Assembly (NCBI GenBank): GCA_002372935.1 | Contig: DFJF01000004.1 | Coordinates: forward strand, 118,002-182,001 | Direction: 5' to 3' | From: Clostridiales bacterium UBA3678 | GTDB lineage: Bacteria > Bacillota > Clostridia > TANB77 > CAG-508 | DNA length: 64,000 nt | In this document: positions 43,579 to 58,162 of the stretch, piece after piece | How the letters are laid out: every line of letters starts with the position of its first letter | How positions within the stretch are numbered: position 1 is the first letter of the stretch | Translations under genes and position numbers: made by a program | Notes under the pieces: model-generated | What the model was told of the DNA's origin: nothing | Seen by the model: only the letters and a program-made list of their open reading frames with translations | The model's database searches: none

Positions 43579-44337
43579 TCAAGTTTCTTCTGCAATTTCT
43601 GATTTTAATTTATCTTTGAGTCTGTAAGAATTTCCATTTATATTTATAATATGTGAATGATGTAAAAGTCTGTCTAATATTGCGTTTGCTAATGTTACAT
43701 CTCCAAATATTTCATACCACTTTCCAAAAGGTTTATTTGTTGTTATTATTGTGGAATGATTTTCATATCTTTTATTTATTAGTTGAAATAACATATTTGC
43801 TCCCTCGTTATCTATTGGCAAAAATCCCATCTCATCTATTATTAAAACTTTATATTTCGCATAATGATTTAATCTATTCATAAACCTATTTTCTGAATTT
43901 GCTTTCTTTAAATTTGATATCAGATCATTGCAATTTATAAAATATGTTGAATCTCTGTTCTTTGCTGCGACTATTCCTATTGATGTTGCTAAATGTGTTT
44001 TTCCAACTCCTGGACTTCCTACAAATATTATATTTTCCTTATTCTCTATAAATCTTAAGTTTTTAAAATCTAATATTTGCTCTTTATTTATTGTTGGCTG
44101 AAATGAAAAATCAAAATCCTCAAAGTTCTTTATAAATGGAAATCCTGCTGTTCTTACACATCCATATATTGCTTTTTCATTCATTAATTCTATTTCTAAA
44201 TTTGTTAATTCATATAGACTTTCTACTACATCTTTTTCTTTCTTATTTATTAGCTCGATATACTTATCCAAGTTTTGCTTTATTCTTTCTAATTTTAATA
44301 TTTCCAAATTATTTATTAATTTTATATAATTACTCAT
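43579..44337 (-). CDS. istB: IS21-family helper ATPase IstB
   Basis: Walker A GSPGVGKTHL, Walker B LIIDEMGFLP, and LLHHSHIININGNSYR tail. Confidence 0.9.
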   Translation of the reverse strand: MSNYIKLINNLEILKLERIKQNLDKYIELINKKEKDVVESLYELTNLEIELMNEKAIYGCVRTAGFPFIKNFEDFDFSFQPTINKEQILDFKNLRFIENKENIIFVGSPGVGKTHLATSIGIVAAKNRDSTYFINCNDLISNLKKANSENRFMNRLNHYAKYKVLIIDEMGFLPIDNEGANMLFQLINKRYENHSTIITTNKPFGKWYEIFGDVTLANAILDRLLHHSHIININGNSYRLKDKLKSEIAEET

Positions 44338-44338
44338 T

Positions 44339-45565
44339 TTATTTTACCTCACATAATTTATTTAAATTCTCTAAATTCTTTTTTGCTAATGCTTCTATTT
44401 GTTCTTGCGTTTTATTTTGTAATATTCCGCTAAGTCCTTCTATATAGTGTTCTTCTTTATAATTTATATTTTTTTCTGAAATTTCATGTATTGTTATTAA
44501 TTCTTTGTTATAATATACATAGAGCTTGTTATTCTCTTCTTGAATGGATAATGTATGTTCTATGTATTTATTTGGAACTGAATATCTTTTACCTTTATAA
44601 TAAAATAATGATTCATTTGATATTTTTATTTGCTTTGTGGATATCAAATATTGTTCCATTATTTTTTGATTTGGTAGTGGTTTAAGATATTCTTTTTCCT
44701 TATTAAATAGTATAATTGGTGCTACTCCTATTGTCGAATTTACTTGTCTATTTACTTTTATATTTATTTCCTTAATTATTTTTACTAATTCTTCTTCATC
44801 TTCAAATTCATGATTATATGGTATTAACCAGCTCATAAATCTATTTGCTGACTCATCTTTTCCTTTTGTATATGGATGTCTCGGTTTACACTTTTTAGCA
44901 TTTATTCCTATATCTTTTATAAATGCTTTAAATTCATCTGAAAATTCTCCTGTTTTGGTATTTACTATACTACTCATATTATCTGTAAGTAATTCTTCTG
45001 GCAATCCCCCAATATATTCAAATGTTTTTATCAAACTTCTTTGTACATCAATTCTTGTTTTAAATTTACTATATATAAATACATGTAATCTACTTGAACC
45101 AAGTGTTGATGATAATATATTAAATTCAAATACTTCGCCATGTTTACTCACCATTCTTATATCTTCTTTCCAATCAAATTGTAATTGTTTTCCCATATCT
45201 GTTTCAAATCTTAAATGTGCTTTATTATTCTTTTTAGGCTTTAATTTATGTTTGTTTATGTACTTATAAAAATTTGAATATGTTCCTATATTATTATCTT
45301 CACTAAAATATTGATATAATCCTGTTATTGTTATTCCTGGCAATTCCAATTTTTCTTTAATTTCATTTTTTAAATTATCCAATTTTGATTTTCTAATTAT
45401 CTTAATATTTTCTCTACAATATCCATTATTATATTTTTCAATTGTTCGTCTATCTATCTTATATATTCTTGATAATTCTGAATAATTTGGTTTTATATTT
45501 AAAGTCTTCATTATTAATAACTCCTGTTTTATTTTTTCTAATTTTTTTCTATATTCTTCATTCAT
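44339..45565 (-). CDS. istA: IS21-family transposase IstA
   Basis: N-terminal HTH and a DDE core (LQFDWKED..., LLTDNMSSIV, PRHPYTKGKDESANRF). Its stop abuts the istB start. Confidence 0.9.
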   Translation of the reverse strand: MNEEYRKKLEKIKQELLIMKTLNIKPNYSELSRIYKIDRRTIEKYNNGYCRENIKIIRKSKLDNLKNEIKEKLELPGITITGLYQYFSEDNNIGTYSNFYKYINKHKLKPKKNNKAHLRFETDMGKQLQFDWKEDIRMVSKHGEVFEFNILSSTLGSSRLHVFIYSKFKTRIDVQRSLIKTFEYIGGLPEELLTDNMSSIVNTKTGEFSDEFKAFIKDIGINAKKCKPRHPYTKGKDESANRFMSWLIPYNHEFEDEEELVKIIKEINIKVNRQVNSTIGVAPIILFNKEKEYLKPLPNQKIMEQYLISTKQIKISNESLFYYKGKRYSVPNKYIEHTLSIQEENNKLYVYYNKELITIHEISEKNINYKEEHYIEGLSGILQNKTQEQIEALAKKNLENLNKLCEVK

Positions 45566-45707
45566 TTTGTTATACCTCCATCAAAAGTATAACAAAAAAG
45601 AATGTACTTTTGGGAATTTATCTTTGTACATTTTTGTACATTATTAAATTCCATTTTTTGTACATTCTTATTTTATCATTAACAAAAATAAATTTAATTA
45701 CTATTAG

Positions 45708-45797
45708 AAATCAAATACAATTAGTAAAAATCTCATAAAACCTTCCAATAAAAATCAAACGAAATTAGTACAAATTTCCTAAAATATTCCAATAAAA
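45708..45797. repeat. imperfect tandem duplication, 2 x about 44 bp
   Basis: AAATCAAATACAATTAGTAAAAATCTCATAAAACCTTCCAATAAA / AAATCAAACGAAATTAGTACAAATTTCCTAAAATATTCCAATAAA, about 80% identical. Confidence 0.7.
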
Positions 45798-46191: not shown

Positions 46192-47388
46192 CTAATGTGC
46201 GTTAGTCACTAATAAATTTTCTAGTACGTTTCCTGCGTGTTTATCGTGTGATTTTAAAGGATGTACATAGAAATTATAGGTTGTAGTAATCTGTGCATGA
46301 CCTAGTCTTGCTGATACAGTTGCTACATCTACTTGCTGAGCTATAAGCAATGTTGCATTTGTATGGCGTAACCCATGAAATGTTATAACAGGTAAGCCAA
46401 TTTGTTTAATAAATTTTTCAAACCATTTACTAATAGTTGATGGTGTAATTGGTTTGCCATCTACTTGTACAAATAACCTATCAGAATCGTGCCAGAAATC
46501 GCCTACAATCGTTTTTTGTTCTTCATACCATAATTTATATTCTTCGAGTAAAGAAACGATAAAATCGGGAATAGCGACTTCACGAATTGAACTTTCTGTT
46601 TTAGGACTTTTTGTAAATATTCCTTTGTCAGATAAATATTGACTTGATTTGTTTATGCTGATAATTCCATTTTTTAAATCTATATCAGACCATTCAAGTC
46701 CAGCTAGTTCTCCAAGTCTTGCACCTATAAATATGTCTAGTAAAACTGCAACTTTGTATTTGATGTCATTGCCTGTTAGCTTTTCTAAATTATCTATTAG
46801 AATTCTAGTTTGAACTTCATCATAACATTCACGTTTAGGTTTAGGTGCTTTAGGTGGTTGCACACGTTCTGCAGGATTATTTACAATCATTTGCCAATAA
46901 ACAGCCTTAGTTAGCATAGCATGTAAAAGCCTATGATGTTCTAAAATTGTTTTCTTTGATAATGGTTTTCTAGTTTTCTTTCCATTGTTGTTTTTCTTTC
47001 TAACTATTTGAGTATCTTCATCTAATAAATTATAGAATTGCATAATATCAATAGGTCTTATTTTATTTAACCTAAAATGTCCAAAATAGGGAAGAATTCT
47101 AGATTCTAGCATTCCTTTATATCTGCTATATGTAGATGGCGCAAGTTCTTTTAGTCCATAATCTCTTTTCCATATTTCAACGAATTCTTTAAATGTTGGG
47201 ACAGTTCCATCAACTACAAATCCGTTTTCTACTTGTGCAATATATTTTGCAAGTTCAGTTCTCGCTTCTGATTTGTTTTTGCAATGGACTGTCTTTTGAT
47301 GTCTTATAGCTTTTCCATCTAGATCATAGCCTTTAAAGACTACTAATCTATAACTGTTTTTTCCACGCTTTTCAATACTACCAGTCAA
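46192..47388 (-). CDS. int: tyrosine-type site-specific integrase
   Basis: N-terminal SAM-like domain. Catalytic set in ARLGELAGLEW, HGLRHTNATLL and LGHAQITTTYNFYVH. Confidence 0.92.
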   Translation of the reverse strand: MTGSIEKRGKNSYRLVVFKGYDLDGKAIRHQKTVHCKNKSEARTELAKYIAQVENGFVVDGTVPTFKEFVEIWKRDYGLKELAPSTYSRYKGMLESRILPYFGHFRLNKIRPIDIMQFYNLLDEDTQIVRKKNNNGKKTRKPLSKKTILEHHRLLHAMLTKAVYWQMIVNNPAERVQPPKAPKPKRECYDEVQTRILIDNLEKLTGNDIKYKVAVLLDIFIGARLGELAGLEWSDIDLKNGIISINKSSQYLSDKGIFTKSPKTESSIREVAIPDFIVSLLEEYKLWYEEQKTIVGDFWHDSDRLFVQVDGKPITPSTISKWFEKFIKQIGLPVITFHGLRHTNATLLIAQQVDVATVSARLGHAQITTTYNFYVHPLKSHDKHAGNVLENLLVTNAH

Positions 47389-47580: not shown

Positions 47581-48615
47581 ATGAGTGAAACAATACATAA
47601 ACTTAATATAAAAGAAGATGAAAGCATTTTGCCTATTGGAACGAAAAATGGATGTCTTACTATAATTGATGATTTTTCAGCTTATCAAAATGAAGTTGCA
47701 CAAAAAAAGATTGAAAAATTAGAAAAAGAAAAGCAAGACTTTATAGATGGAATTAAGCTAGAAACAAATAACTTTGAATCGGTTGATACATTTGATGATT
47801 GGATTAAGCATTGTAGAAATGCACAATATTATAAATGTCAATGCAAGTGTGGTCAAATTCATTTCTTAGATAAATCAAGATTTTTGAGGAAGAGGCATAG
47901 ATATTGCTCCAATGATTGTGGAATTAAAAAAAAGCATAATCAAGATATTCTAGATAGTTATGAAAGAGTAAAAGATGAAAGCTATGATAAAAAATTATTG
48001 AATACAATTTTTGAATCTCTAGAAATTATAGAGTGTGTTAATGATAATTATGAAAGATTGTATGGCTATCATGATAAAAGAAAAAAAGGTGGAGGAACAT
48101 ATAAAATATACAAAATATACAAATGTCGTTGTTACTTATGTGGAAAGGAATATGAGATAATATCTTCGCAATTCAAAATTAAAAATGATACATATGGTTC
48201 AAATGCAACTAAAGGATATTATAGTGATGCATACTGTGATTGCCATAAAATATCATCTTTTCAATGGAGGACGATTGACCTATTTCAAAAATATGATGTG
48301 AATTATAGAGTTGAAGTTTCTTTTCCAGATTTATATGGTATAGGAAATAAAAATCAATTAAGATATGATTTTGCAATATATGATAAGGATGGCAATATTA
48401 AATATTTAATTGAATGCCAAGGAGAACAACATTATAAACCAGTAAAAGAGTTTGGAGGAAATTATCAATATAATGTTCAAAAGGAAAATGATAATTTAAA
48501 AAGAGAATATGCAAATAAAAATATGATTAAATTAATAGAAATACCATATAAATGCAATACTTATGAAAAAGAAGAAGAGTTTCTAATAAATGAAGGAGTA
48601 ATATCAATAAAATAA
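47581..48615 (+). CDS. hypothetical Cys-motif protein with C-terminal Vsr/DUF559-like (PD-(D/E)XK-type) module
   Basis: Several CxC/CxxC pairs (CQCKCG, CSNDCG, CRCYLCG, CDCH). C-terminal LRYDFAIYDKDGNIKYLIECQGEQHY...LKREYANKNMIKLIEIPY resembles the DUF559/Vsr-type nuclease core. Confidence 0.45.
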   Translation: MSETIHKLNIKEDESILPIGTKNGCLTIIDDFSAYQNEVAQKKIEKLEKEKQDFIDGIKLETNNFESVDTFDDWIKHCRNAQYYKCQCKCGQIHFLDKSRFLRKRHRYCSNDCGIKKKHNQDILDSYERVKDESYDKKLLNTIFESLEIIECVNDNYERLYGYHDKRKKGGGTYKIYKIYKCRCYLCGKEYEIISSQFKIKNDTYGSNATKGYYSDAYCDCHKISSFQWRTIDLFQKYDVNYRVEVSFPDLYGIGNKNQLRYDFAIYDKDGNIKYLIECQGEQHYKPVKEFGGNYQYNVQKENDNLKREYANKNMIKLIEIPYKCNTYEKEEEFLINEGVISIK

Positions 48616-48622
48616 GGAAGTA

Positions 48623-49609
48623 CTACTTCCTTATTTTCATGTATTCAAGCCACTCAATTAATTCTTCGCCAGTTATTAATCCTTTTTTATATCTTTCTTG
48701 ATAAATTGGATATTCCTCTCTAAAGCATTCAAAAAGTCTTTCCACTTTTTCAGAAGCACCTATTGAGACTTGTTTATGTAAGTTTTTATATCTTTTCCTG
48801 CATTTTTGCAGATATATATCATCTTTTTCATTTTTTCTATCGCGTTCTTCTTTTGCAATTTCAAAACAAGTTTTAGTATCAGTATATAAGTTATTACAAT
48901 ATTGTTGTTCTTTATTTTTAGTATGTATAAACCAATAGTTACAATTTTTGCAACATTCAAATTTTATATTCTTAATATTACTTATTAATTCTTTTACAAT
49001 ACAATATAAAAGATTTTCAACAGAATCAGAAGAAAATGTGTAATTCATTGATAAATTTTCAGGTATATTGTTCATAAAAAATGTGTTTAAATTATAATTT
49101 ATAAATAATGTAGGATTTTCTTCTAATATAGTGTTTATAGCAGAGTAATTATGTTCTTTTTCAGCAAGGTATTCTATAATATCATAATCCTTATCTAAAA
49201 TATCAGTAATATTTAAGATGTTCTTATAATAACTGTTAGTAAAGACTTGCTCTAATCTAATTTTAAGCATTGAAAAATTTAATGATAATTCATCATATAT
49301 CCAGTCAATAAAGTCTTGTAAGTATTCTCTATTTAATACAATAGAATAATTATTTATATCACCTAAAATTTTATTATCATATAAGCTCAATAAATGAATG
49401 AATAAGTAATCTTTGACAAAAATAGTAAAATCTATATGATCATCAAAATCTGTGTTCATAAAATCTAGTAAAAAATTTCCTAATTCTTGTTCTTTTGGGC
49501 AAGCTGTTTTAATTCTTATTTTTTTATTATCAACTTCTTCTAATGCATAGCTAGAAATATATTCTTTAAAGTTTTTAAAATCAAAAATTATTTCAAGATT
49601 TGCAATCAT
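48623..49609 (-). CDS. hypothetical protein with C-terminal Cys cluster
   Basis: Start at the ATG at 49609 (MIANLEI) behind a GGGGGT RBS. CCKNCNYWFIHTKNKEQQYCNN...C motif. No family recognised. Confidence 0.45.
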   Translation of the reverse strand: MIANLEIIFDFKNFKEYISSYALEEVDNKKIRIKTACPKEQELGNFLLDFMNTDFDDHIDFTIFVKDYLFIHLLSLYDNKILGDINNYSIVLNREYLQDFIDWIYDELSLNFSMLKIRLEQVFTNSYYKNILNITDILDKDYDIIEYLAEKEHNYSAINTILEENPTLFINYNLNTFFMNNIPENLSMNYTFSSDSVENLLYCIVKELISNIKNIKFECCKNCNYWFIHTKNKEQQYCNNLYTDTKTCFEIAKEERDRKNEKDDIYLQKCRKRYKNLHKQVSIGASEKVERLFECFREEYPIYQERYKKGLITGEELIEWLEYMKIRK

Positions 49610-49744
49610 AAAATACCCCCTACAATTCATAAATAAATATTTTTTCATTTGTACGGTTTTTAATTCTTAAATAGACAATTAAAATAACAATTAGTAATTA
49701 GCTAGTTACATTATACAAAGCATTTTACAAAAAAACATAAAAAA

Positions 49745-49814
49745 TGCTGAAATTTGCTGATTTGTGTAAAATTGTGCAATTTTGTGCTGATTTGTGCTGA
49801 AATGTGCATAAAAA
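49745..49814 (+). promoter_or_regulatory. seven tandem 10-bp phased repeats upstream of the xis-like gene
   Basis: TGCTGAAATT TGCTGATTTG TGTAAAATTG TGCAATTTTG TGCTGATTTG TGCTGAAATG TGCATAAAAA. Exact 10-bp register, ending 15 nt before the ATG at 49830. Confidence 0.7.
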
Positions 49815-49829
49815 TGAGGAGGTGATTTT

Positions 49830-50033
49830 ATGAATGAACTATCAAAAGTAGAAAGAACAACACTAACAATGAAGGAAACAGCAGAGTATTTAGGAGTTTC
49901 ATATTGGTTAGTAAATCAATTAGTTAGAAGAAAACAAATACCATGTGCAAGAGTTGGTGGAAGAGTGTTATTTAGAGTTAAAGCTTTAGATGAATACTTA
50001 AGTGCAAAAGAAGTAAATTCATTAAATAAGTAA
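49830..50033 (+). CDS. xis: excisionase-type (MerR/HTH_17-like) DNA-binding protein
   Basis: LTMKETAEYLGVSYWLVNQLVRRKQIPCARVGGRVLFRVKALDEYL. GAGGAGGTG RBS. Confidence 0.8.
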   Translation: MNELSKVERTTLTMKETAEYLGVSYWLVNQLVRRKQIPCARVGGRVLFRVKALDEYLSAKEVNSLNK

Positions 50034-50050: not shown

Positions 50051-50585
50051 ATGCAATGGATTAAGATTTTTACAAGTATATTTGGAAATCCTAAAATTCA
50101 ACTATTATTAAAAGAGCGTGATGGAGATACAATATTTAGAATATGGATTCAATTATTAACAATTGCTGGGACAAGCGCGCAAGGTGGAAAGATAATGTTT
50201 TCAACAAATCAACCATTAACTGTGGAAGATCTTGCAAAGATTACACAAAAAACAAACAAAAAAATTAAAAATATATTGGATAAGTTAATTCATTGCGAAA
50301 TGATTATATTTGAAAATAATACATACATAATTAAAAATTGGGAGAAGTATCAAAGTGCTGATAAATATGTGAAAACTTTAGAACAAAATAGAGAAAGACA
50401 AAGAAGATTTAGAGAAAATCAAAAAAACGAAAATAACGTTAATGTAACGTTACGGTAACGGAACAGAAGAGAAGATACAAGAAAAGAATATAATAGAAAG
50501 AAATAAATACAAAAGTGGGTATGCAAATTATGAACAAAGACATTATCCACCGGAGTTTTTTGATCAGTTTATAGCGAATAAGTAA
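50051..50585 (+). pseudogene. phage replisome-organizer (DnaD-like) gene with a +1 frameshift near 50454
   Basis: N-terminal MQWIKIFTSIFGNPKIQLLLKERDGDTIFRIWIQLLTIAG matches the replisome-organizer N-terminal domain. The track ORF stops at 50458 (NVNVTLR*). The next frame continues GNGTEEKIQEKNIIERNKYKSGYANYEQRHYPPEFFDQFIANK* to 50585. Removing one g from ttacGGtaacgg rejoins them as VTLRNGTEEK. Confidence 0.65.
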
Positions 50586-50791
50586 GAAAGTAATAGTTTA
50601 TGAAAAAAATAAAAATAATGAAAAAGGTTGGTTTCAAAGGATAGACAATAAAAGTAGTATTAAAAAAAGTATAAACTAATAATTGAAGAAGAATATCAAT
50701 ATACAACTGATACACCTGATGATATTGCTAGAATTATAAATAGCTATGTAAATTATACTTGAAAATTAGATAAGAGAAGACTTTTAAGGGT

Positions 50792-50999
50792 AATTCCCCA
50801 ATGGGGAATTTTTAATTTTATATAAAAGTCTCCATTGGAGAATTTTCACTAAATCCCTTGATATTACTAGTGTTAATGCCAGAATTCTCACGATGAGAAT
50901 TTATAATTTTTTACTTTATGAAATGTTTGCTAAATATTTAAGCAAGATTCCCCTCTGTGTATACAAAAGGTATTTTTTGATCTTTGGGAGTAACTCCCA
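50792..50999. repeat. cluster of four short tri-loop palindromes
   Basis: AATTCCCC-aat-GGGGAATT (50792-50810), TCTCC-att-GGAGA (50829-50841), AATTCTCA-cga-TGAGAATT (50883-50901), TGGGAG-taa-CTCCCA (50985-50999). Confidence 0.75.
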
Positions 51000-51127
51000 G
51001 ACCCTTTAAATTTTTTTGTTATAGAAATTCGACATTTTATTTCAAAATACTGGAAGGTATGTTGTTAAAAAAATGATTTTGTGATATAACATATACTAGA
51101 GAAATTATAAAGTATTGAGAGGTAAAG

Positions 51128-51442
51128 ATGAAAGAATTAATAGAAGAAATAGATAAATTCAACAAAGAAAGAGATTGGGATCAATTTCATTCACCTGAGA
51201 ATTTAGCAAAGTCAATTTCTATTGAGGCTGGAGAATTATTAGAGTGTTTTCAATGGAATAATGACTATAACAAAGAAGAAGTATGTGAAGAACTAGCAGA
51301 TGTTTTTACATATTGTTTAATGATGGCTGATAAGTTAGATGTAGATCCAAAAGATATAATTTTAAAGAAGTTAGATAAAACAAGAAAAAAATATCCAGTT
51401 GAAAAAGCTAAAGGGGTTAGTACAAAATATAATAAACTATAA
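51128..51442 (+). CDS. MazG-like nucleotide pyrophosphohydrolase (small all-alpha NTP-PPase)
   Basis: FNKERDWDQFHSPENLAKSISIEAGELLECFQW...EELADVFTYCLMMADKLDVD, the EExxE/D metal-binding helix pattern of the MazG/YpjD type. Confidence 0.85.
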   Translation: MKELIEEIDKFNKERDWDQFHSPENLAKSISIEAGELLECFQWNNDYNKEEVCEELADVFTYCLMMADKLDVDPKDIILKKLDKTRKKYPVEKAKGVSTKYNKL

Positions 51443-51469
51443 AGATAATAATTAATGGGGGCAATTATT

Positions 51470-53431
51470 ATGATAGTATATGAAGCAACAAAGCAACTTT
51501 TTGTAGAAGATGTTGTGCAAGACAGAATTGAAGAAAATATAGATAGAAAATTTTATGAGAAGATGGGATATCATACATCTCAAAATGAAAGAAAAGCATG
51601 GAATAATTCTATGCAATATATGATGAAAGTTTTAATTGATAACAATATACCAGGAAATGTAGGAATTGCAATTGAATTCAAAATTCCAAATACATCTAAA
51701 AGAGTAGATTTTATAATTACAGGTAAAGATGGAAAACTTAAAAATACTGCTATTATTGTTGAATTAAAACAATGGACAGAGGCTGATATAGTTGAAGGAA
51801 AAGATGGAATTGTACAAGCATATACAGGATATGCATTAAGAGAAGTAGCACATCCTTCATACCAAGCTTGGTCTTATGCAACGACAATAGAAGACTATAA
51901 TGAAACAGTGCAAGAAAGACAAATAGATTTACATCCATGTGCATATCTTCATAATTATTTAACAGTAACACCTCCAACACTATTAGCAGATAATTATAAA
52001 TATTACTTAGAGAAAGCACCTGCATTTATAAAGGGAGATGTTGAAAAATTAAGAGATTTCATAAACAAATATATTAAATATGGCGATGATAAAGAAACAC
52101 TATATATGATTGAAAATGGAAAAATAAGACCTTCTAAATCGTTACAAGATGCATTATCTAGTATGCTAAAAGGTAATGACGAATTTGTAATGATAGATGA
52201 TCAAAAACTTGTTTATGAAACAGCATTAGAAATGGCAAGAAAATCATATAGAGATGGAAAGAAGAGAGTTTTAGTTGTTAAAGGTGGACCTGGAACAGGA
52301 AAATCAGTTTTAGCAATTAATCTTTTAGTAAAACTAACTAATGAAAATATGGTTTGTTCATATGTTACAAAAAATGCAGCACCAAGAAATGTATATGCAA
52401 CAAAATTGAGTGGAGATTTTAGGAAAACAAGAATTAATAATTTATTTAAAGGTTCGGGTTCATTTGTAGAATCTGCAGAAAATGAATTTGATGTTTTAAT
52501 AGTAGATGAAGCACATAGATTAAATGCAAAATCTGGAATGTTTCAAAACTTAGGAGAAAATCAAATAAAAGAAATTATTAAGGCTTCTAAATTTTCAATA
52601 TTTTTCATAGATGAATCACAAAGAGTAACCTTAAAGGATATAGGAAGTATTGATGAAATACAAAAATATATAAAACAAGCTAATGCTGAATCAGAAGTAA
52701 TGGAATTGGAATCACAATTTAGATGTAATGGTTCAGATGGATATATTGCATGGCTAGATGATGTATTAGATATAAGAAAAACAGCTAATAGTGATGGATT
52801 TGATTTAGATTATGATATCAAGGTATGTGATACTCCAAATGAAGTAAGAGATTTGATATTTGAAAAGAATAAAATAAATAATAAAGCTAGATTATTAGCA
52901 GGATATTGTTGGAATTGGATAAAAGATGGAAAAAATAAATCAGATGTGTATGATATAAATATTCCAGAATACAATTTTGCAATGAGTTGGAATTTAGGCA
53001 ATAGCCAAACATGGGCAATAGATGCTGAATCAGTAAATGAAATTGGATGTATACATACTGCTCAAGGACTTGAATTTGATTATATTGGTGTAATTATTGG
53101 AGACGACTTAAGGTATGAAAATGATAAAATAATTACTGATGTAACAAAAAGAGCTAAAACAGATCAATCTATAAAAGGGATTAATAAGCTAAGTAGAGAG
53201 GACTCTGAAAAAGCTAATAAAATAGCAGATGAAATAATTAAGAATACATATAGAACATTAATGACAAGAGGACAGAAAGGCTGTTATATTTATTGCACAG
53301 ATAAAAAATTAGCAGATTATTTAAAGAAAAGATTAAACCAAAAGAATGAGATTATTTATTCAATAGATGAAGACGAAGATAATGATAGCTTAATGGTTGC
53401 TGAAGAAGGAGAAAAATATAGATATGAGTAA
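51470..53431 (+). CDS. DUF2075-type protein: N-terminal PD-(D/E)XK-like nuclease + SF1 helicase-like ATPase
   Basis: KRVDFIITG...AIIVELKQW (D...ExK), Walker A KGGPGTGKSVLAINLL, Walker B VLIVDEAHRL, UvrD_C-like IHTAQGLEFDYIGVIIGDDL and YRTLMTRGQKGCYIY. Start at the ATG at 51470 behind GGGGG; the track start is 51455. Confidence 0.8.
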   Translation: MIVYEATKQLFVEDVVQDRIEENIDRKFYEKMGYHTSQNERKAWNNSMQYMMKVLIDNNIPGNVGIAIEFKIPNTSKRVDFIITGKDGKLKNTAIIVELKQWTEADIVEGKDGIVQAYTGYALREVAHPSYQAWSYATTIEDYNETVQERQIDLHPCAYLHNYLTVTPPTLLADNYKYYLEKAPAFIKGDVEKLRDFINKYIKYGDDKETLYMIENGKIRPSKSLQDALSSMLKGNDEFVMIDDQKLVYETALEMARKSYRDGKKRVLVVKGGPGTGKSVLAINLLVKLTNENMVCSYVTKNAAPRNVYATKLSGDFRKTRINNLFKGSGSFVESAENEFDVLIVDEAHRLNAKSGMFQNLGENQIKEIIKASKFSIFFIDESQRVTLKDIGSIDEIQKYIKQANAESEVMELESQFRCNGSDGYIAWLDDVLDIRKTANSDGFDLDYDIKVCDTPNEVRDLIFEKNKINNKARLLAGYCWNWIKDGKNKSDVYDINIPEYNFAMSWNLGNSQTWAIDAESVNEIGCIHTAQGLEFDYIGVIIGDDLRYENDKIITDVTKRAKTDQSIKGINKLSREDSEKANKIADEIIKNTYRTLMTRGQKGCYIYCTDKKLADYLKKRLNQKNEIIYSIDEDEDNDSLMVAEEGEKYRYE

Positions 53432-53585
53432 TGATATTGATATGTTTGCAAAGTTTTTAGCAGAAACAGATAAAATGTTAATAGAAAATGATCAAAAGTA
53501 TAATTTAACAAGAGAACAAAAAGAGCTTTTAAAACAATTTGTTGATGAGTGCTACAAAAATTATAAAAATAAAAAAATGTTATAA
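53424..53585 (+). CDS. 53-aa hypothetical protein overlapping the DUF2075 gene stop
   Basis: ATG at 53424 behind AAGGAG. MSNDIDMFAKFLAETDKMLIENDQKYNLTREQKELLKQFVDECYKNYKNKKML. Coding status uncertain. Confidence 0.3.
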   Translation: MSNDIDMFAKFLAETDKMLIENDQKYNLTREQKELLKQFVDECYKNYKNKKML

Positions 53586-53692
53586 AAGATATTGACAAAG
53601 AAACAAATGTTTGATATAAATATAAAAGCAGTTTTTAAAAATATATAGTAACGAGTAAGGATAATATATATAAATATTAATTGAGGTAGAAA

Positions 53693-54169
53693 ATGCGTAC
53701 AATGTTATTAAGTTTAAAACCCGATATTTTTGAATTAATAAGAAATGGAAAAAAAATATTTGAATATAGACATCAGTTTTATAATGAACCAGTAGGAGCA
53801 TATTTATATATTAGTAAACCAATTCAAAAAATAGTTGGATATATTGAATTTGACAAAAGAATTGAATTAAAAGATTGGAAGAATAAATACAAAGATAATT
53901 TAGAAGTAAGTAAAAGAATTGATGATTATATTTCAAGAAATTACAAGTATGCAATGCCAATTAACAAATTTAAAATGACAACAGAAATTCCTTTAAGTGA
54001 TTTAAAAAATAATCTTGAAAAATTTATTATTCCAGAATCATATTATTATTTGGATAATTTTATTGAGTTAAAAGAATATATAGAGAAAAATATAGATTTT
54101 ACAGATGAAGTAGTAGAAAATAATTTCCAAGTAGTAACAGATGAAAATATTTGTAGGAAAAAATATTAA
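53693..54169 (+). CDS. ASCH-domain (PUA-like fold) protein
   Basis: MLLSLKPDIFELIRNGKKIFEYRHQFYNEPVGAYLYISKPIQKIVGYIEFDKRIE matches the COG4933/ASCH N-terminal pattern (SIKPxxxxxIxxGxKxxExR). Confidence 0.7.
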   Translation: MRTMLLSLKPDIFELIRNGKKIFEYRHQFYNEPVGAYLYISKPIQKIVGYIEFDKRIELKDWKNKYKDNLEVSKRIDDYISRNYKYAMPINKFKMTTEIPLSDLKNNLEKFIIPESYYYLDNFIELKEYIEKNIDFTDEVVENNFQVVTDENICRKKY

Positions 54170-54232
54170 TGCAATCTAGGGGTTTGCATTCTAACAAAAA
54201 ATACAATACAATATAAGAGAAAGAGGTGCAAA

Positions 54233-55396
54233 ATGAAAGAATATAAAGTAGGAAGTTTATTTGCTGGAGTTGGTGGAATATGTTTAGGATTTCAAAACGC
54301 TAAAAGTGAAAACGCTAAATATAAACTATTATGGGCAAATGAAATAGATGAATATGCGTGTGCTACATATAAGAACAATTTTAAACATACTTTATTACAA
54401 GGAGATATAAAATTAGTATTACATCCTGAGTTAGCAAAGGATAATGAAGAAAAGAAGTATTATGAAAATCTTCACGAAATAATTTTAAAAGAGCCTATAG
54501 ATATTTTAAATGGAGGATTTCCTTGTCAAGCATTTAGTATTGCAGGAGAACAAAAAGGTTTTAATGATGAAAGAGGAAATTTATTTTTAAATATTATAGA
54601 TTTAATTAATATGTTAGGAGAGAAATTCTATAAACCTAGAGTATTGTTTTTAGAAAATGTTAAGAACCTACAAGCACACGATAATGGAAGAACGTATAAA
54701 GTTATTAAACAAAAATTAGAAGAATGTGGTTATAAGATATTTGAAAAAGTACTAAATACAATGGAATATTCGGATTTACCACAAAATAGGGAAAGAATAT
54801 ATATTATAGGTTTATCAAATGAAGAAGATATAGAATTATTTAACTTATATAATAAGGATGTCCTTTCTAATTTGCATAATAATAAGACATCTGAGGATAG
54901 AGTAAATGATATTAAAAGGGTAATTAATTATGATTTAACAAAAGAAAACGCAGAAAAGTATTATTATACAAAAACAAAATATCCTAATTATTTTGTTTCA
55001 CTTGATGAATTCAAAAATTCTGATAAAGAAAATAGAATAAATTTAGATGAGCAAATTGACGAAATGTATCAATTCTATCAATGCCGTAGAGGAATGTATG
55101 TTAGAAAAAATAAAAGTGGTGTTTGTCCTACATTAACAGCTAATATGGGAACAGGTGGGCATAATGTACCATTAATCAAAGTTAGTGATGGTATTAGAAA
55201 ATTAACACCTACTGAAACATTTAAATTACAAGGATTTCCGGTAGGAAATGGATATAATTTACCTAAAGAGTTTAAAGGAAAGAAATATCCTGATTCACAA
55301 TTATATAAACAAGCAGGAAATGCAGTTTCAGTTCCAGTTATAACAATTTTATCAGAAGAAATTTTGAAAATTTTAGAAAAAAATGATAATAAATAA
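54233..55396 (+). CDS. dcm: DNA (cytosine-5)-methyltransferase
   Basis: Motif I LFAGVGG, motif IV GGFPCQAFS, motif VI ENV, motif VIII QNRERIYIIG and motif X GNAVSVPV. Confidence 0.95.
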   Translation: MKEYKVGSLFAGVGGICLGFQNAKSENAKYKLLWANEIDEYACATYKNNFKHTLLQGDIKLVLHPELAKDNEEKKYYENLHEIILKEPIDILNGGFPCQAFSIAGEQKGFNDERGNLFLNIIDLINMLGEKFYKPRVLFLENVKNLQAHDNGRTYKVIKQKLEECGYKIFEKVLNTMEYSDLPQNRERIYIIGLSNEEDIELFNLYNKDVLSNLHNNKTSEDRVNDIKRVINYDLTKENAEKYYYTKTKYPNYFVSLDEFKNSDKENRINLDEQIDEMYQFYQCRRGMYVRKNKSGVCPTLTANMGTGGHNVPLIKVSDGIRKLTPTETFKLQGFPVGNGYNLPKEFKGKKYPDSQLYKQAGNAVSVPVITILSEEILKILEKNDNK

Positions 55397-55409
55397 GAAG
55401 AAAGAGCAA

Positions 55410-56072
55410 TTAAAATTTGCTCTCTTTTTTGTATTCTGAAAATTTTATTTTTGTATATCCAAGATCTAAAGCCTTATATAAATATCGAGAAGCTACTGAT
55501 GAATATTGACCCCATTTCCTACATTTTTTTATTATAGAGTTTCTATCTGTTTTATTTGTATTATATAACCATGAATAACTTTGAATAAAAGCCATATCTT
55601 CATAGGGTAAAATATCATCTCTACCAAGAACGAAGATTAAATACATTTTAGATGTCCATTTTCCGATTCCTCTTATTTTTTGTAAATCTCTTTCTATTTC
55701 AGAATTATTTTTTTTATCAAAAGATTTAAAATCAATTTCATTATTTAATACTGAATTTGATAAATTCTTAATGTAACCAATTTTTGAATTTGAAATCCCA
55801 ATATTTCTTAGTTCTGTGTAATCAAGATTTAATATTTTTTTTGGTGTTATATCATTTTTACATAAATTTAAAAGTCTATTATATAGTACATCTGCAACTT
55901 TGTTTGAAAGCATTTGACCTATAATAGTTTTAATTAAAAAAGTATAAGGATTATCGTATAGTGTATAAGACAAATCACCTATTAAATTAAATAAAATGTT
56001 TAAATTACTATCTTTTTTTGAAAGATATTTTATTGACTCTGAATTATTATTTAAAATAACTATTTTACTCAT
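55410..56072 (-). CDS. AlkA-like HhH-GPD DNA glycosylase
   Basis: IIGQMLSNKVADVLYNRL, HhH LQKIRGIGKWTSKMYLIF and a putative catalytic Asp in DDILPYEDMAFIQ. No Fe-S Cys cluster. Confidence 0.75.
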   Translation of the reverse strand: MSKIVILNNNSESIKYLSKKDSNLNILFNLIGDLSYTLYDNPYTFLIKTIIGQMLSNKVADVLYNRLLNLCKNDITPKKILNLDYTELRNIGISNSKIGYIKNLSNSVLNNEIDFKSFDKKNNSEIERDLQKIRGIGKWTSKMYLIFVLGRDDILPYEDMAFIQSYSWLYNTNKTDRNSIIKKCRKWGQYSSVASRYLYKALDLGYTKIKFSEYKKESKF

Positions 56073-56134
56073 ATTATATTCACCTTACAAGAAATTATCA
56101 TATTTTAATAAAAAAAGCAATATTGAAAATTGTA

Positions 56135-56163
56135 TTTGCATTTATTATATTTAATAATGCAAA
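56135..56163. promoter_or_regulatory. imperfect 29-bp palindrome between the glycosylase and controller genes (candidate C-box/operator)
   Basis: TTTGCATTTATTATATTTAATAATGCAAA. The two arms match apart from a 1-nt indel. Confidence 0.35.
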
Positions 56164-56223
56164 GTTACAGTTTGTTTTAATAATTTATCTTTTTTTGTAA
56201 AATAATCTCGAAGGAGGAAGTAT

Positions 56224-56454
56224 ATGGATAATAAACATTCAGAGAAGTATATAAGAATAGGATTAAATATTTCTTTACAAAGAAAATTAAAAAAGATGAC
56301 ACAAATTGAATTGGCTGAAAAGATAGGTATAAGTAGAACTCATATGAGTAATATAGAAGCACCTAATATGGTAACGCCAGTTTCTTTAGAAGTAATTTTT
56401 GACATATGCGATGTCCTAAATATATCTCCAGAAGTGTTATTTAAAATGAATTAA
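56224..56454 (+). CDS. XRE-family HTH protein, likely R-M controller (C) protein
   Basis: IGLNISLQRKLKKMTQIELAEKIGISRTHMSNIE. GAAGGAGG RBS. Directly precedes the nuclease candidates. Confidence 0.7.
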   Translation: MDNKHSEKYIRIGLNISLQRKLKKMTQIELAEKIGISRTHMSNIEAPNMVTPVSLEVIFDICDVLNISPEVLFKMN

Positions 56455-56473
56455 TTCATATATAAGAGAAGAT

Positions 56474-57031
56474 ATGAAACAAGTAAAAGTAAAATTAAAA
56501 GATAATACAATAGTAATTGGTGATGAATTTGATATGGAAGATTACAAAAAATTTAAACAAATCTTCCGTAAGTGGACTGATATTAATTCTGATTTAAAAC
56601 AATTTGGAGGAAGAAACTTAAATGTACCAGATGTATTCAGTGAAGCTCTATATTGTATATTTTTTAATGCAGTAAGAACAAATGGAACAGCTCATTCATA
56701 TGATGCTGTCGATAAAGAAACTGGTGAAGGAATTCAAATAAAATCAGCTTCTATACAAAATGATTGTACTTCATTTGGTCCAACTTCAACATGGGACAAA
56801 TTGATTTTTGCAGATTTAGCACCTAATGGAAGTGTGGACGGAAATGTTTGGTTTTATGAAATAGATTCGACCAATATTTACAATATTATTTTAAATACTA
56901 AAAAAGCTGAAACATTTAGAGATCAACAGTTACAAGGCAGAAGACCTAGACTTTCAATAAAAGATAAAATAATTAATCCTTTAAGATTAAAACCAATAAA
57001 GAAAATAAATTTAATGGAAGATGAGGATTAG
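56474..57031 (+). CDS. putative type II restriction endonuclease (small, possibly Bsp6I-like)
   Basis: 185 aa following the C protein. SYDAVDKETGEGIQIKSAS...CTSFGPTSTWDKLIF could hold a D...(E/Q)xK site. The family guess is from memory only. Confidence 0.45.
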   Translation: MKQVKVKLKDNTIVIGDEFDMEDYKKFKQIFRKWTDINSDLKQFGGRNLNVPDVFSEALYCIFFNAVRTNGTAHSYDAVDKETGEGIQIKSASIQNDCTSFGPTSTWDKLIFADLAPNGSVDGNVWFYEIDSTNIYNIILNTKKAETFRDQQLQGRRPRLSIKDKIINPLRLKPIKKINLMEDED

Positions 57032-57043
57032 GGGGAATAATTA

Positions 57044-58162
57044 ATGAAAGAAGTTAGTTTTAATAGGGATGATATTATTGAAAGAGTATATTTTATAACG
57101 AAATTAGTTCAGAATCAAAAAGGTACAACAATGCAAGGGGCATTAACATCTAAGAGTGATTCAATGGGTGGTATATTTGATAGATTTATAAATACAATAT
57201 CAGATTCGTTGGTTTTTGAAAAAATTATTTTACCACAAATAAAAACGAAAAAGAAAGTTAATGTAATAAATGATTACTATTATTATGATCCAAAAAAATC
57301 AGTTTCAGGAATAGCACCAGATATTTTTGGAATTACTGTAAATGGAAAACAAATTCGTTTTACGAAATTTAATAATAAGTGGGAAGCTGAAAAAGGAATG
57401 CCACAAATTGAAATAAAGACATTTAAAGCAAAAGATCAAATGATTAGCCTTAGAGATCAAGGCTATTCTGAATATATGATATTTGTAGATTTAGATTTAA
57501 GAATAGATTATTTAGTACCATTTTTAGATTCTAAATTATTAAACAAAAATATTGCTAAAAAAATGCAAATGGATGATAAAGTATTTATTGAAAAAGATAA
57601 AAATACAAGAGTTACTAAAATAACTCCTATAGATTATTCATCTGATGTCATAGGAACGCTAAAATTAATTGCTGTTACAAATGCTACTGATTTTATGAAA
57701 CAAGCTACTTTATGTGGTGGAAATGTAAGTGTACAAAGAATGAAAGAAATGAATGCTAGAAAAACAAACATGAGATCAAATCTATTACATGATAAATTAA
57801 GTTCATATGCAAATAAAAGCCCTCGTGTAAAGAAACTATATGAATTTAATAAATTATGGAGAGAAAAGATGAGTATTAGTGAGAATACTGCAATATTAGA
57901 CTTTTCAGCTGATAATATAGAAAATATTGAAATATGTAAGTACAATAATGATGGAATGGTAATTACTGCTTTAGAAAATGGTTGTAGCTTTAACGGTATG
58001 CAATTAGAAGTAGGAAGACAATACCCAGTTAAATTTGCAACATTAGACAGAACAGGAAATAATGGAAGTGAATATTTTATGCAAAAACAATGTGCATTTT
58101 ATTTAAATGGCATAGAAAATAAACTCATAAAAGAATTAGAAAAAATAATAAAAAGTAATTAA
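57044..58162 (+). CDS. putative PD-(D/E)XK nuclease (second restriction-endonuclease candidate)
   Basis: GIAPDIFG ... PQIEIKTFK gives a classical PD...ExK spacing. GGGGGA RBS. 12-nt gap after the preceding gene. Confidence 0.45.
   Translation: MKEVSFNRDDIIERVYFITKLVQNQKGTTMQGALTSKSDSMGGIFDRFINTISDSLVFEKIILPQIKTKKKVNVINDYYYYDPKKSVSGIAPDIFGITVNGKQIRFTKFNNKWEAEKGMPQIEIKTFKAKDQMISLRDQGYSEYMIFVDLDLRIDYLVPFLDSKLLNKNIAKKMQMDDKVFIEKDKNTRVTKITPIDYSSDVIGTLKLIAVTNATDFMKQATLCGGNVSVQRMKEMNARKTNMRSNLLHDKLSSYANKSPRVKKLYEFNKLWREKMSISENTAILDFSADNIENIEICKYNNDGMVITALENGCSFNGMQLEVGRQYPVKFATLDRTGNNGSEYFMQKQCAFYLNGIENKLIKELEKIIKSN

Follow-up and report, generated by a model that had tools for sequence, protein, structure and literature searches.

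A MazG-like pyrophosphohydrolase gene and a predicted nuclease-DUF2075 helicase gene form a conserved pair on mobile DNA, with a possible role in anti-phage defence

The subject of this study is a gene pair in a 64,000-nucleotide stretch of DNA from Clostridiales bacterium UBA3678 (contig DFJF01000004.1), called the window in the following, with a G+C content of ca 25%. Four open reading frames (ORFs) lie co-directionally on its plus strand: a gene for a small MazG-like protein (51128..51442), a gene for a large predicted nuclease-helicase with a DUF2075 domain (51470-53431), a micro-ORF (53424-53585) and a gene for an ASCH protein (53693-54169). A previous reading made from the letters alone, the sequence-only reading below, had taken all four as a candidate multi-gene defence module. 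The ORFs are indeed present at these positions, and the identities assigned to three of them hold, the MazG, DUF2075 and ASCH domains matching Pfam families PF12643, PF09848 and PF04266 above the cut-offs. The domain matches and the conservation across phyla place the ORFs and their motifs beyond chance. However, the unit that emerges consists of the first two genes only.

The first gene, preceded by a GAGAGG ribosome-binding site, encodes a 104-amino-acid MazG-like all-alpha nucleoside triphosphate (NTP) pyrophosphohydrolase of the DCTPP1/RS21-C6 type. The protein matches PF12643 with E = 1.1e-21 (77 bits, cut-off 27) and PF03819 with E = 3e-6, and its nearest solved relatives are the archaeal pyrophosphatase 4qgp (E = 1e-18) and mammalian DCTPP1/RS21-C6 (E = 4e-17). 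In DCTPP1, cytosine is selected by a sandwich of Trp47 and Trp73 together with His38 and His51, with Phe41, Phe50, Tyr102, Tyr129 and Asp98 also named (PMC13291643). That enzyme favours deoxycytidine triphosphate (dCTP) and C5-modified dCTP and averts their misincorporation (PMC13291643, PMC7162842). Among 61 MazG proteins linked to DUF2075 genes, the metal ligands E33, E36, E39 and E55 are kept in 58-59, and the equivalents of the DCTPP1 pocket (F11, W17, F20, H21, W43, Y62, Y89 and D58) in 52-60; the position of His38 alone is replaced, by Ile or Leu. The Pfam matches, the ExxE...ExxD ligands and the cytosine pocket thus place the protein among the MazG-like/DCTPP1 all-alpha NTP pyrophosphohydrolases, and since the pocket is conserved, it is most likely a dCTP/C5-modified-dCTP pyrophosphohydrolase. 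While it shares the fold family, the metal ligands and the pocket with DCTPP1, it differs in being prokaryotic, in its length of 104 residues, in the replacement of His38 and in sharing an operon with a nuclease-helicase gene on mobile DNA.

The second gene begins exactly 27 nucleotides after the MazG stop codon. The start codon preferred in the sequence-only reading, the ATG at 51470, is the right one, because a GGGGG ribosome-binding site lies 7 nucleotides upstream and an M-I-x-Y start stands at the same position in 71 diverse homologues. The protein counts 653 residues, the 654 given previously including the stop codon. Its residues 1-262 (51470..52255) form a predicted PD-(D/E)xK-type nuclease domain with a helical linker, while residues 263-653 and the stop codon (52256..53431) comprise a DUF2075/SLFN-group-3 helicase-ATPase of superfamily 1B (SF1B) followed by a disordered acidic C-terminal tail. 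The match to PF09848, the DUF2075/SLFN-g3 helicase, covers the complete model (1-354/354) with E = 7.6e-107 and 358 bits (cut-off 24). The family is large, with 811 clusters at 50% identity matching at E < 1e-30. A sequence search of the large protein against the PDB was discarded, as nothing but P-loop noise, for example RecA and spermidine synthase, came back.

The D...ExK and DEAH motifs pointed out earlier are present and turn out to be, with Walker A, the most conserved positions in an alignment of 72 full-length members (29-56% identity). Invariant in this alignment are D80 (RVDF), K100 (IVELKQW), W102, H128, P129 and Y136 in the N-terminal part, and G275, G277 and K278 of Walker A (GGPGTGKS), D346 and E347 of Walker B (DEAH), Q384, R418, Q532 and R600 in the remainder, while E69, R78, E98 and Q132 are found in at least 90% of the sequences. 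In a separate N-terminal alignment of 36 sequences (29-52% identity), E69, R78, D80, E98, K100, W102, H128, P129, Q132 and Y136 are all invariant. The full-length AlphaFold2 model has a predicted local distance difference test (pLDDT) score of 90.8, with the acidic tail at 628-653 disordered. For the helicase half, the best Foldseek matches are DSH9, SLFN11, RecD2, Dna2, nsp13, Upf1 and Dda, with a probability of 1.00 to RecD2, Dda, Upf1, nsp13, Dna2 and SLFN11, which places it in SF1B. The N-terminal 262 residues are modelled with a pLDDT of 92.7 as an alpha-beta-beta-beta-alpha-beta core that carries E69...D80...E98-x-K100, and a single homologue of the large protein gives a faint NERD match. 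From the motif and the modelled core, a PD-(D/E)xK nuclease is the best inference for this domain.

About one in ten close relatives of the large protein carries a C-terminal Peptidase_S24 domain (P0122, P0123, P0129, P0135, P0189, P0205 and P0236; loci L060 and L068), in which cleavage site (A-(A/C)-G), serine (G-x-S-M) and a lysine are kept. MazG still adjoins the fused gene in L060 and L068. Judged by these conserved residues, the fusions suggest a regulation triggered by RecA*/single-stranded DNA in those variants; the window protein has no S24 domain. A further relative, P0171, is fused to a PIF1-type helicase instead.

We now turn our attention to the association of the two genes. A scan of one genome per GTDB species for exact peptide words of the query gave 106 loci. 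The 80 best of them, in which the large protein is matched with 51-96% identity, were then searched by tblastn with the window proteins, and their genes were delimited by simple ORF calls. MazG lies on the same strand as the DUF2075 gene in 58 of the 75 informative loci: in 33 it is upstream within 160 nucleotides, in 8 it is downstream within the same distance (Coriobacteriia and two Lachnospiraceae), and in 17 it is 0.45-4.9 kb away. Another 17 loci have no MazG within 10 kb, and 5 are uninformative owing to contig ends. The pair is found in Clostridia, other Bacillota, Coriobacteriia, Bacteroidota, Opitutia, three lineages of the candidate phyla radiation (CPR) and Methanobrevibacter, and also on a plasmid of the haloarchaeon Halalkalicoccus and in a sequence record submitted as the genome of a Microcystis phage. 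It is conserved in at least seven phyla. The distribution is patchy and horizontally transferred, and archaea, CPR and Bacteroidota share more than 50% identity. The stop codon of MazG overlaps the helicase start in Bacteroidota (ATGA), and over 57 loci the protein distances of MazG and the large protein are correlated with a Mantel r of 0.75, a value reached in 0 of 999 permutations. Since the gene order varies yet the adjacency is kept, and since there is translational coupling and co-divergence, these data show that MazG and the nuclease-DUF2075 protein are a functional unit. The previously suggested cassette stands in this part, and the pair recurs among defence genes.

The architecture of the large protein had been likened before to that of nuclease-helicase immunity (Nhi) proteins, and a profile comparison bears this out. 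Nhi-like (SG141, from B. cereus FSL H8-0482) is an experimentally verified single-gene anti-phage protein (10.1101/2022.05.11.491447; Millman et al. 2022), most of whose sequence could be recovered from the supplement. In hhalign it aligns with the window protein with a probability of 98.95%, E = 1e-17, over 314 columns at 21% identity, the aligned region including the W-x-x-S, E-Y, R-x-D and E-x-K positions and Walker A and B. On the strength of this profile match, the window protein is a remote homologue of Nhi-like with the architecture of Nhi-like and Nhi. By domain organisation, an N-terminal PD-(D/E)xK-type nuclease (predicted in the window protein) followed by a DUF2075 helicase, the two belong together. 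However, Walker B is DEAQ in Nhi-like and DEAH here, and Nhi-like was validated as a lone gene, with no pyrophosphohydrolase partner described. The published SG141 list also omits a homologue from B. vietnamensis NBRC 101237 (L034; 62% identity to the window protein), a genome that Millman's set did include. Judging from the 21% identity and this one genome, the window protein would fall outside the Nhi-like family as its authors delimit it.

Among the PADLOC models, the large protein matches Nhi (PDLC02372; E = 1.4e-15, 55 bits, model 124-332/470), AbiO (E = 1.2e-16, model 121-330/468) and PDC-S41 (E = 3.1e-18, 63 bits, in two stretches), in each case partially and not near full length. The MazG-like protein has no PADLOC match, and PADLOC v2.0 contains no model for the pair. 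Literature on DUF2075, on MazG-like proteins and defence islands, and on Schlafen, anti-phage and pyrophosphatase topics yielded no description of a MazG-DUF2075 pair, so that we too find no named system for the combination. Nhi, AbiO and PDC-S41 share with the window protein the combination of a nuclease, here a predicted one, with an SF1B/DUF2075 helicase, the horizontal spread and the defence neighbourhoods (10.1101/776245). The replication intermediates of phages are degraded by Nhi from S. epidermidis (SERP2475; Bari et al. 2022), which depends on its nuclease as well as its helicase activity (10.1101/776245). It is, however, a single-gene system, and MazG is not among its top reported neighbour families.

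A similar logic is found in SauUSI, where an ATP-dependent nuclease-helicase is encoded next to a small deoxynucleoside triphosphate (dNTP) pyrophosphohydrolase of the NUDIX family. This linkage occurs in at least 60 genomes (PMC3141236), and the NUDIX hydrolase is dispensable for restriction (PMC3312211). The components are not homologous: SauUSI combines a PLD nuclease, a superfamily 2 helicase and a DUF3427 reader with NUDIX, whereas the present pair combines a predicted PD-(D/E)xK nuclease, an SF1B helicase and an all-alpha MazG. SauUSI moreover has a known reader domain for 5-methylcytosine (5mC) and 5-hydroxymethylcytosine, while none is recognisable in the window protein. A dCTP deaminase and a dGTPase have reportedly been described by Tal et al. 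in 2022 as anti-phage defences that act by nucleotide depletion. Such defences share with our pair a dNTP-pool enzyme within anti-phage defence; they are, however, stand-alone, have other folds and deplete a canonical dNTP upon infection, whereas here a MazG-type enzyme is joined to a presumed DNA-degrading effector.

The neighbourhood of the pair was surveyed in 24 diverse loci that do not belong to the Clostridia element family, with 130 proteins in total. By the number of members with a match, the Pfam families are HNH (4), Fic (4), NUDIX (4), DUF3427 (3), NERD (3) and PLD (3), followed by the rarer MrcB_N (2), Mrr_cat (2) and C5-methylase (2). The PADLOC matches are Type IV methyl-directed restriction endonucleases (4; best E = 4e-231), PDC-S07 (4), PDC-S04 (3) and SoFic (3). 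Many copies of the pair lie in chromosomal defence islands beside Type IV enzymes, and the neighbours and inserts are mostly defence genes, many of them modification-dependent nucleases (SauUSI-like with NUDIX, AspBHI-like and McaZI-like). In the Clostridia elements, the pair stands directly 3' of the replication genes, and RnlAB, Fic, Hachiman and Thoeris adjoin it. The neighbourhood census suggested with the sequence-only reading thus supports a recurrence of MazG-DUF2075 next to defence genes, but not a conservation of ASCH with the pair.

The spacer between MazG and the helicase is itself an insertion hotspot, interrupted in 17 loci (for example L006, L008, L009, L014, L018, L029, L064, L069 and L078). 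The inserts are an AspBHI_N + Mrr_cat enzyme, a SauUSI-like PLD-helicase-DUF3427 enzyme with a NudG/MutT-like NUDIX, a GIY-YIG-DUF2075 paralogue, AbiU2, an HNH_4 nuclease with a partner of ca 105 residues, RadC and a YhcG nuclease. SauUSI-like and NUDIX genes flank or interrupt the MazG-DUF2075 pair in L008, L014, L035, L074 and L080. In L010, L013 and L025 the operon reads NUDIX, McaZI-like DUF3427 nuclease, a protein of ca 102 residues and MazG, with start and stop codons that abut or overlap as far as MazG; the helicase follows directly 3' of MazG in L013 and L025, while two small ORFs intervene in L010. These operons match the co-localisation of McaZI with a DUF2075 NTPase described by Lutz et al. 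2019 (PMC6765204).

The small protein in these operons belongs to a type of ca 102-112 residues with the pattern YNKLVRDxIP...EExxE...EELAD, present in the Clostridia loci L010, L013, L014, L025 and L064. A protein of ca 105 residues with YNKLVRD also occurs in Bacillales (L032, L036 and L038), with 44-50% identity between Clostridia and MazG-less Bacillales. It lies directly 3' of the helicase in L032, L036, L038 and L042, homology having been established by blastp for the first three, and is followed by an HNH_4 nuclease in L032, L038 and L042. In the loci where the neighbouring gene was typed, the protein adjoins a McaZI-like or an HNH_4 nuclease. It has no Pfam or NCBIfam match, and its PDB-profile matches, all to all-alpha NTP pyrophosphatases, are weak (HisIE, YpjD and 5ie9, E = 0.08-0.16), with a fitting ExxE/EELAD motif. 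The protein may represent yet another, third type of dNTP hydrolase associated with nucleases.

Taken together, our preferred reading is that MazG and the nuclease-helicase constitute a self-contained, mobile two-gene anti-phage or anti-plasmid module of the Nhi/Nhi-like kind, in which the MazG partner hydrolyses (modified) dCTP; we put its probability at roughly 45%. Here it would belong to the cargo of a small integrative element in a Clostridia-type bacterium from gut or rumen. The 653-residue protein would be the effector, its SF1B translocase/helicase bringing the N-terminal nuclease to foreign or replicating DNA, which is then degraded; we infer this step from the homology and the invariant motifs, as for Nhi. 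The MazG partner, going by its conserved residues, would hydrolyse dCTP and C5-modified dCTP to the monophosphate. Its role would be accessory and non-essential, which fits the 17 relatives that lack MazG, and would consist of pool hygiene rather than restriction catalysis, namely the removal of non-canonical cytosine nucleotides. As the gene neighbourhoods and the analogous linkage of SauUSI and NUDIX suggest, such hygiene could starve phages that build modified DNA, and could also block the salvage of nucleotides released from degraded foreign DNA into the host chromosome, thereby sparing it from attack by co-resident modification-dependent nucleases. In the S24-fused relatives, activation might take place through RecA*/single-stranded DNA.

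A number of points weigh against this reading. The N-terminal model has no significant Foldseek match among solved structures, the best E value being 0.1 in a weak list that includes EcoO109I, Cap4, Exo5 and EndoMS, and the PD-(D/E)xK nuclease is for this reason a predicted rather than a demonstrated one. Nor does any Pfam, NCBIfam or fold match link residues 1-262 to a modified-base reader, which leaves the protein outside the Type IV enzymes, the Type IV theme coming from neighbouring genes only. The pair moreover often co-resides with C5-methyltransferases, including in this window. A general dependence of the module on 5mC is unlikely on both of these grounds. The defence-island context on cargo-rich mobile elements is suggestive but not proof. 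The census loci were found via exact peptide words of the query and are hence biased towards closer relatives. Finally, the loci without MazG within 10 kb, 16 from Bacillales and one from Anaerovibrio, have another candidate dNTP pyrophosphohydrolase nearby in 6 cases only. A replacement of MazG by NUDIX in the Bacillales clade holds in part (L035, L038, L042 and L044). The divergent gene upstream in the MazG-less Bacillales was considered as a hidden hydrolase and rejected, as it encodes an XRE-type helix-turn-helix (HTH) regulator or is an unrelated gene.

An option that we consider improbable is a control of signal or toxin type, in which MazG acts as a regulator and keeps low a nucleotide ligand (a dNTP, a (p)ppGpp-like compound or another NTP) that would otherwise activate or inhibit the nuclease-helicase, until infection alters this nucleotide and unleashes the nuclease in an abortive or toxin-antitoxin-like manner. 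The ATGA overlaps and the co-divergence are typical of toxin/antidote pairs, one Nhi homologue is toxic when expressed (10.1101/776245), and MazG-family enzymes are reported to hydrolyse signalling nucleotides in other conflicts (10.1101/2022.06.09.495361). However, 17 close relatives of the helicase do without MazG, and the 0.45-4.9 kb of unrelated genes between the two in another 17 loci would be unusual for such a pair. A signal model is opposed by the pocket of MazG, which is of the cytosine dNTPase type, and by the large protein, in which no nucleotide-sensor domain is recognisable.

Unlikely to a similar degree is a role in DNA damage or maintenance, with pool sanitation by MazG and a nuclease-helicase acting on replication intermediates that are damaged or stalled; in the S24-fused relatives this would be subject to a control of SOS type. 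The LexA/UmuD-like S24 fusions of close relatives, whose cleavage site and Ser/Lys dyad are intact, fit this model, as do the position of the pair directly after replication genes in Clostridia elements and the Foldseek matches to Dna2 and RecD2; DCTPP1 is a mammalian genome-integrity enzyme (PMC7162842). On the other hand, the distribution is patchy and horizontally transferred, the surroundings contain defence rather than repair genes, the large protein is homologous to a verified defence protein, and sister elements with the same replication genes often have no pair.

Counter-defence is very unlikely. In this scenario MazG would destroy immune nucleotide signals of the host, or mimics of a depleted pool, while the helicase-nuclease attacks competing elements or host defence DNA. 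The occurrence on integrative elements, on plasmids and in one phage-deposited record would agree with it, and phage MazG-like enzymes are reported as anti-defence factors (10.1101/2022.06.09.495361). However, a pattern scan of IMG/VR (2.9 million viral contigs) gave no relatives and 50,697 phage records gave one close match, the MazG pocket fits dCTP and not cyclic nucleotides, and many copies of the pair reside in chromosomal defence islands beside Type IV enzymes.

This leaves the two remaining genes of the originally proposed module. The ASCH protein (53693-54169; PF04266 E = 4.8e-5, 24.4 bits, cut-off 21.2) is followed in the window by a C5 cytosine methyltransferase, Dcm (54233-55396), an HTH C-protein (56224-56454), a Bsp6I-like restriction endonuclease (56474-57031) and a 372-residue protein without a family match (57044-58162). 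A metagenome scan for ASCH gave 25 loci, of which 21 are informative, and in 20 of these ASCH is followed by the same methyltransferase with 88-95% identity. Where the contig is long enough, the C-protein (92-100%), the Bsp6I-like endonuclease (88-99%) and the 372-residue protein follow as well. In none of the 20 cassette loci is ASCH preceded by an intact MazG-DUF2075 pair; in L101 a DUF2075 gene follows the cassette, and in L104 a remnant of 50 residues lies upstream. Conversely, only one of the 80 DUF2075 loci contains ASCH, there upstream (L022, with the cassette upstream of the pair). Because 20 of 21 informative loci keep the ASCH-Dcm block without the pair, ASCH is the first gene of a separate, neighbouring restriction-modification (R-M) cassette, and the earlier idea of a PUA-like/ASCH domain reading modified bases for the module falls with it. 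ASCH also matches PADLOC PDC-M11B with E = 3.2e-15, while PDC-M11A is not among the matches listed, which for Dcm are the best 25 of 58 families.

The micro-ORF of 53 codons (plus strand, 53424-53585), noted before as lying over the helicase stop, indeed overlaps it by 8 nucleotides, ATGAGTAA, with GGAG upstream. Homologues with 55-97% amino acid identity are found in L001, L002, L003, L018 and L083 only, that is, in 5 of the ca 110 loci examined; in these the overlapping position is constant while the downstream genes differ. There is no Pfam, NCBIfam, PHROG or PADLOC match. By its conserved position and sequence, the micro-ORF is probably a real small gene, a lineage-restricted appendage of the helicase gene outside the core. 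A system of three or four genes, in which ASCH and perhaps the micro-ORF act with MazG and the nuclease-helicase, is hardly probable at all: the genes are co-directional, the window scan shows no terminator-like hairpin between micro-ORF and ASCH, and L083 alone repeats the DUF2075-micro-ORF-ASCH junction, although with a different C5-methyltransferase behind it, but this stands against the separate ASCH-Dcm block and the rarity of both genes beside DUF2075.

In this window only, an HhH-GPD DNA glycosylase gene (55410-56072, minus strand) lies between the methyltransferase and C genes, where sister cassettes have a gap of ca 200 nucleotides, and a bidirectional terminator-like hairpin is located at 55401-55425. 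Its product could be a glycosylase for mismatches or alkylated bases that a 5mC system has enlisted, as is the case for Vsr and Mig.

The integrative element that carries these genes spans 46-64 kb of the window. It comprises a tyrosine integrase (46192-47388, minus strand), an HNH-like gene (47581-48615, plus), a DUF6076-like gene (48623-49648, minus), an HTH_17/Tn916-Xis-like gene (49830-50033, plus), a gene with a phage replisome-organiser N-domain (50051-50458, plus) and, from 51128 onward, the co-directional cargo block on the plus strand. Sister elements from metagenomes share a backbone of integrase, DUF6076, HTH_17, replisome organiser or RepA_N, and a DnaC-like loader, while the cargo differs, examples being Thoeris, Hachiman, RnlAB, Fic and R-M systems; many of those with the same replication genes have no MazG-DUF2075 pair.

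Some further features of the element can be described. An IS21-family element lies directly beside the integrase on the minus strand (istA 44339-45565, istB 43579-44337), where the sister elements L109 and L117 have a ComEA-like gene abutting the integrase, and a 44-nucleotide tandem duplication is found at 45705-45792. Between the DUF6076-like and Xis-like genes, within 49755-49808, two direct repeats of 24 nucleotides (TGCTGATTTGTG...) stand 30 nucleotides apart and may be an operator. The stretch from the replication gene to MazG (50459-51127, 670 nucleotides) is non-coding, with terminator-like hairpins at 50792-50841; sister elements have a DnaC-like loader and a 104-residue gene in its place. 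In a terminator scan of 50400-56500, only these hairpins and that at 55401-55425 stand out. Promoter-like sites in the same region number 52, compared to 49.7 in shuffled sequences, and are thus not enriched, so that operon boundaries cannot be read from these scans. At the far end, an ORF of at least 1116 codons with ca 20% G+C runs on the plus strand from about 60653 past 64000 and out of the window. It has a P-loop GNNGIGKT and is probably a further gene for defence, its product resembling the 1940-residue AAA_22/NPHP3_N NTPase encoded in sister locus L001. The AT-rich 3.3 kb in question were also considered as non-coding or as using an alternative genetic code, which was rejected in view of the single long ORF.

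Nhi-type proteins have been regarded as single-gene immunity, and a DCTPP1-like partner in at least seven phyla, among them CPR, methanogens and haloarchaea, suggests that the cytosine-nucleotide pool matters to them. A wider proposal, which we regard as doubtful, is that DCTPP1-like MazG, the YNKLVRD protein of ca 105 residues and NudG/MutT-like NUDIX are dedicated partners of DNA-degrading restriction nucleases in Bacteria and Archaea. If it is true, the partner nucleases would be Nhi-like DUF2075, SauUSI-like, McaZI-like and HNH enzymes, and there would be an unrecognised 'nucleotide-pool hygiene' arm of restriction that keeps modified nucleotides from destroyed foreign DNA out of the host genome and/or deprives phages of modified precursors; it would also explain the SauUSI-NUDIX linkage, unexplained since 2011. 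Current PADLOC models would miss the pair. Two human proteins of antiviral defence and genome integrity, DCTPP1 and the SLFN11-type helicase, are linked to the module as well. Mobile elements of Clostridia from gut and rumen carry the pair in abundance, with more than 100 clusters at 90% identity matching it at 86-91% identity, and if it restricts incoming DNA, it could shape the flow of phages and plasmids among them.

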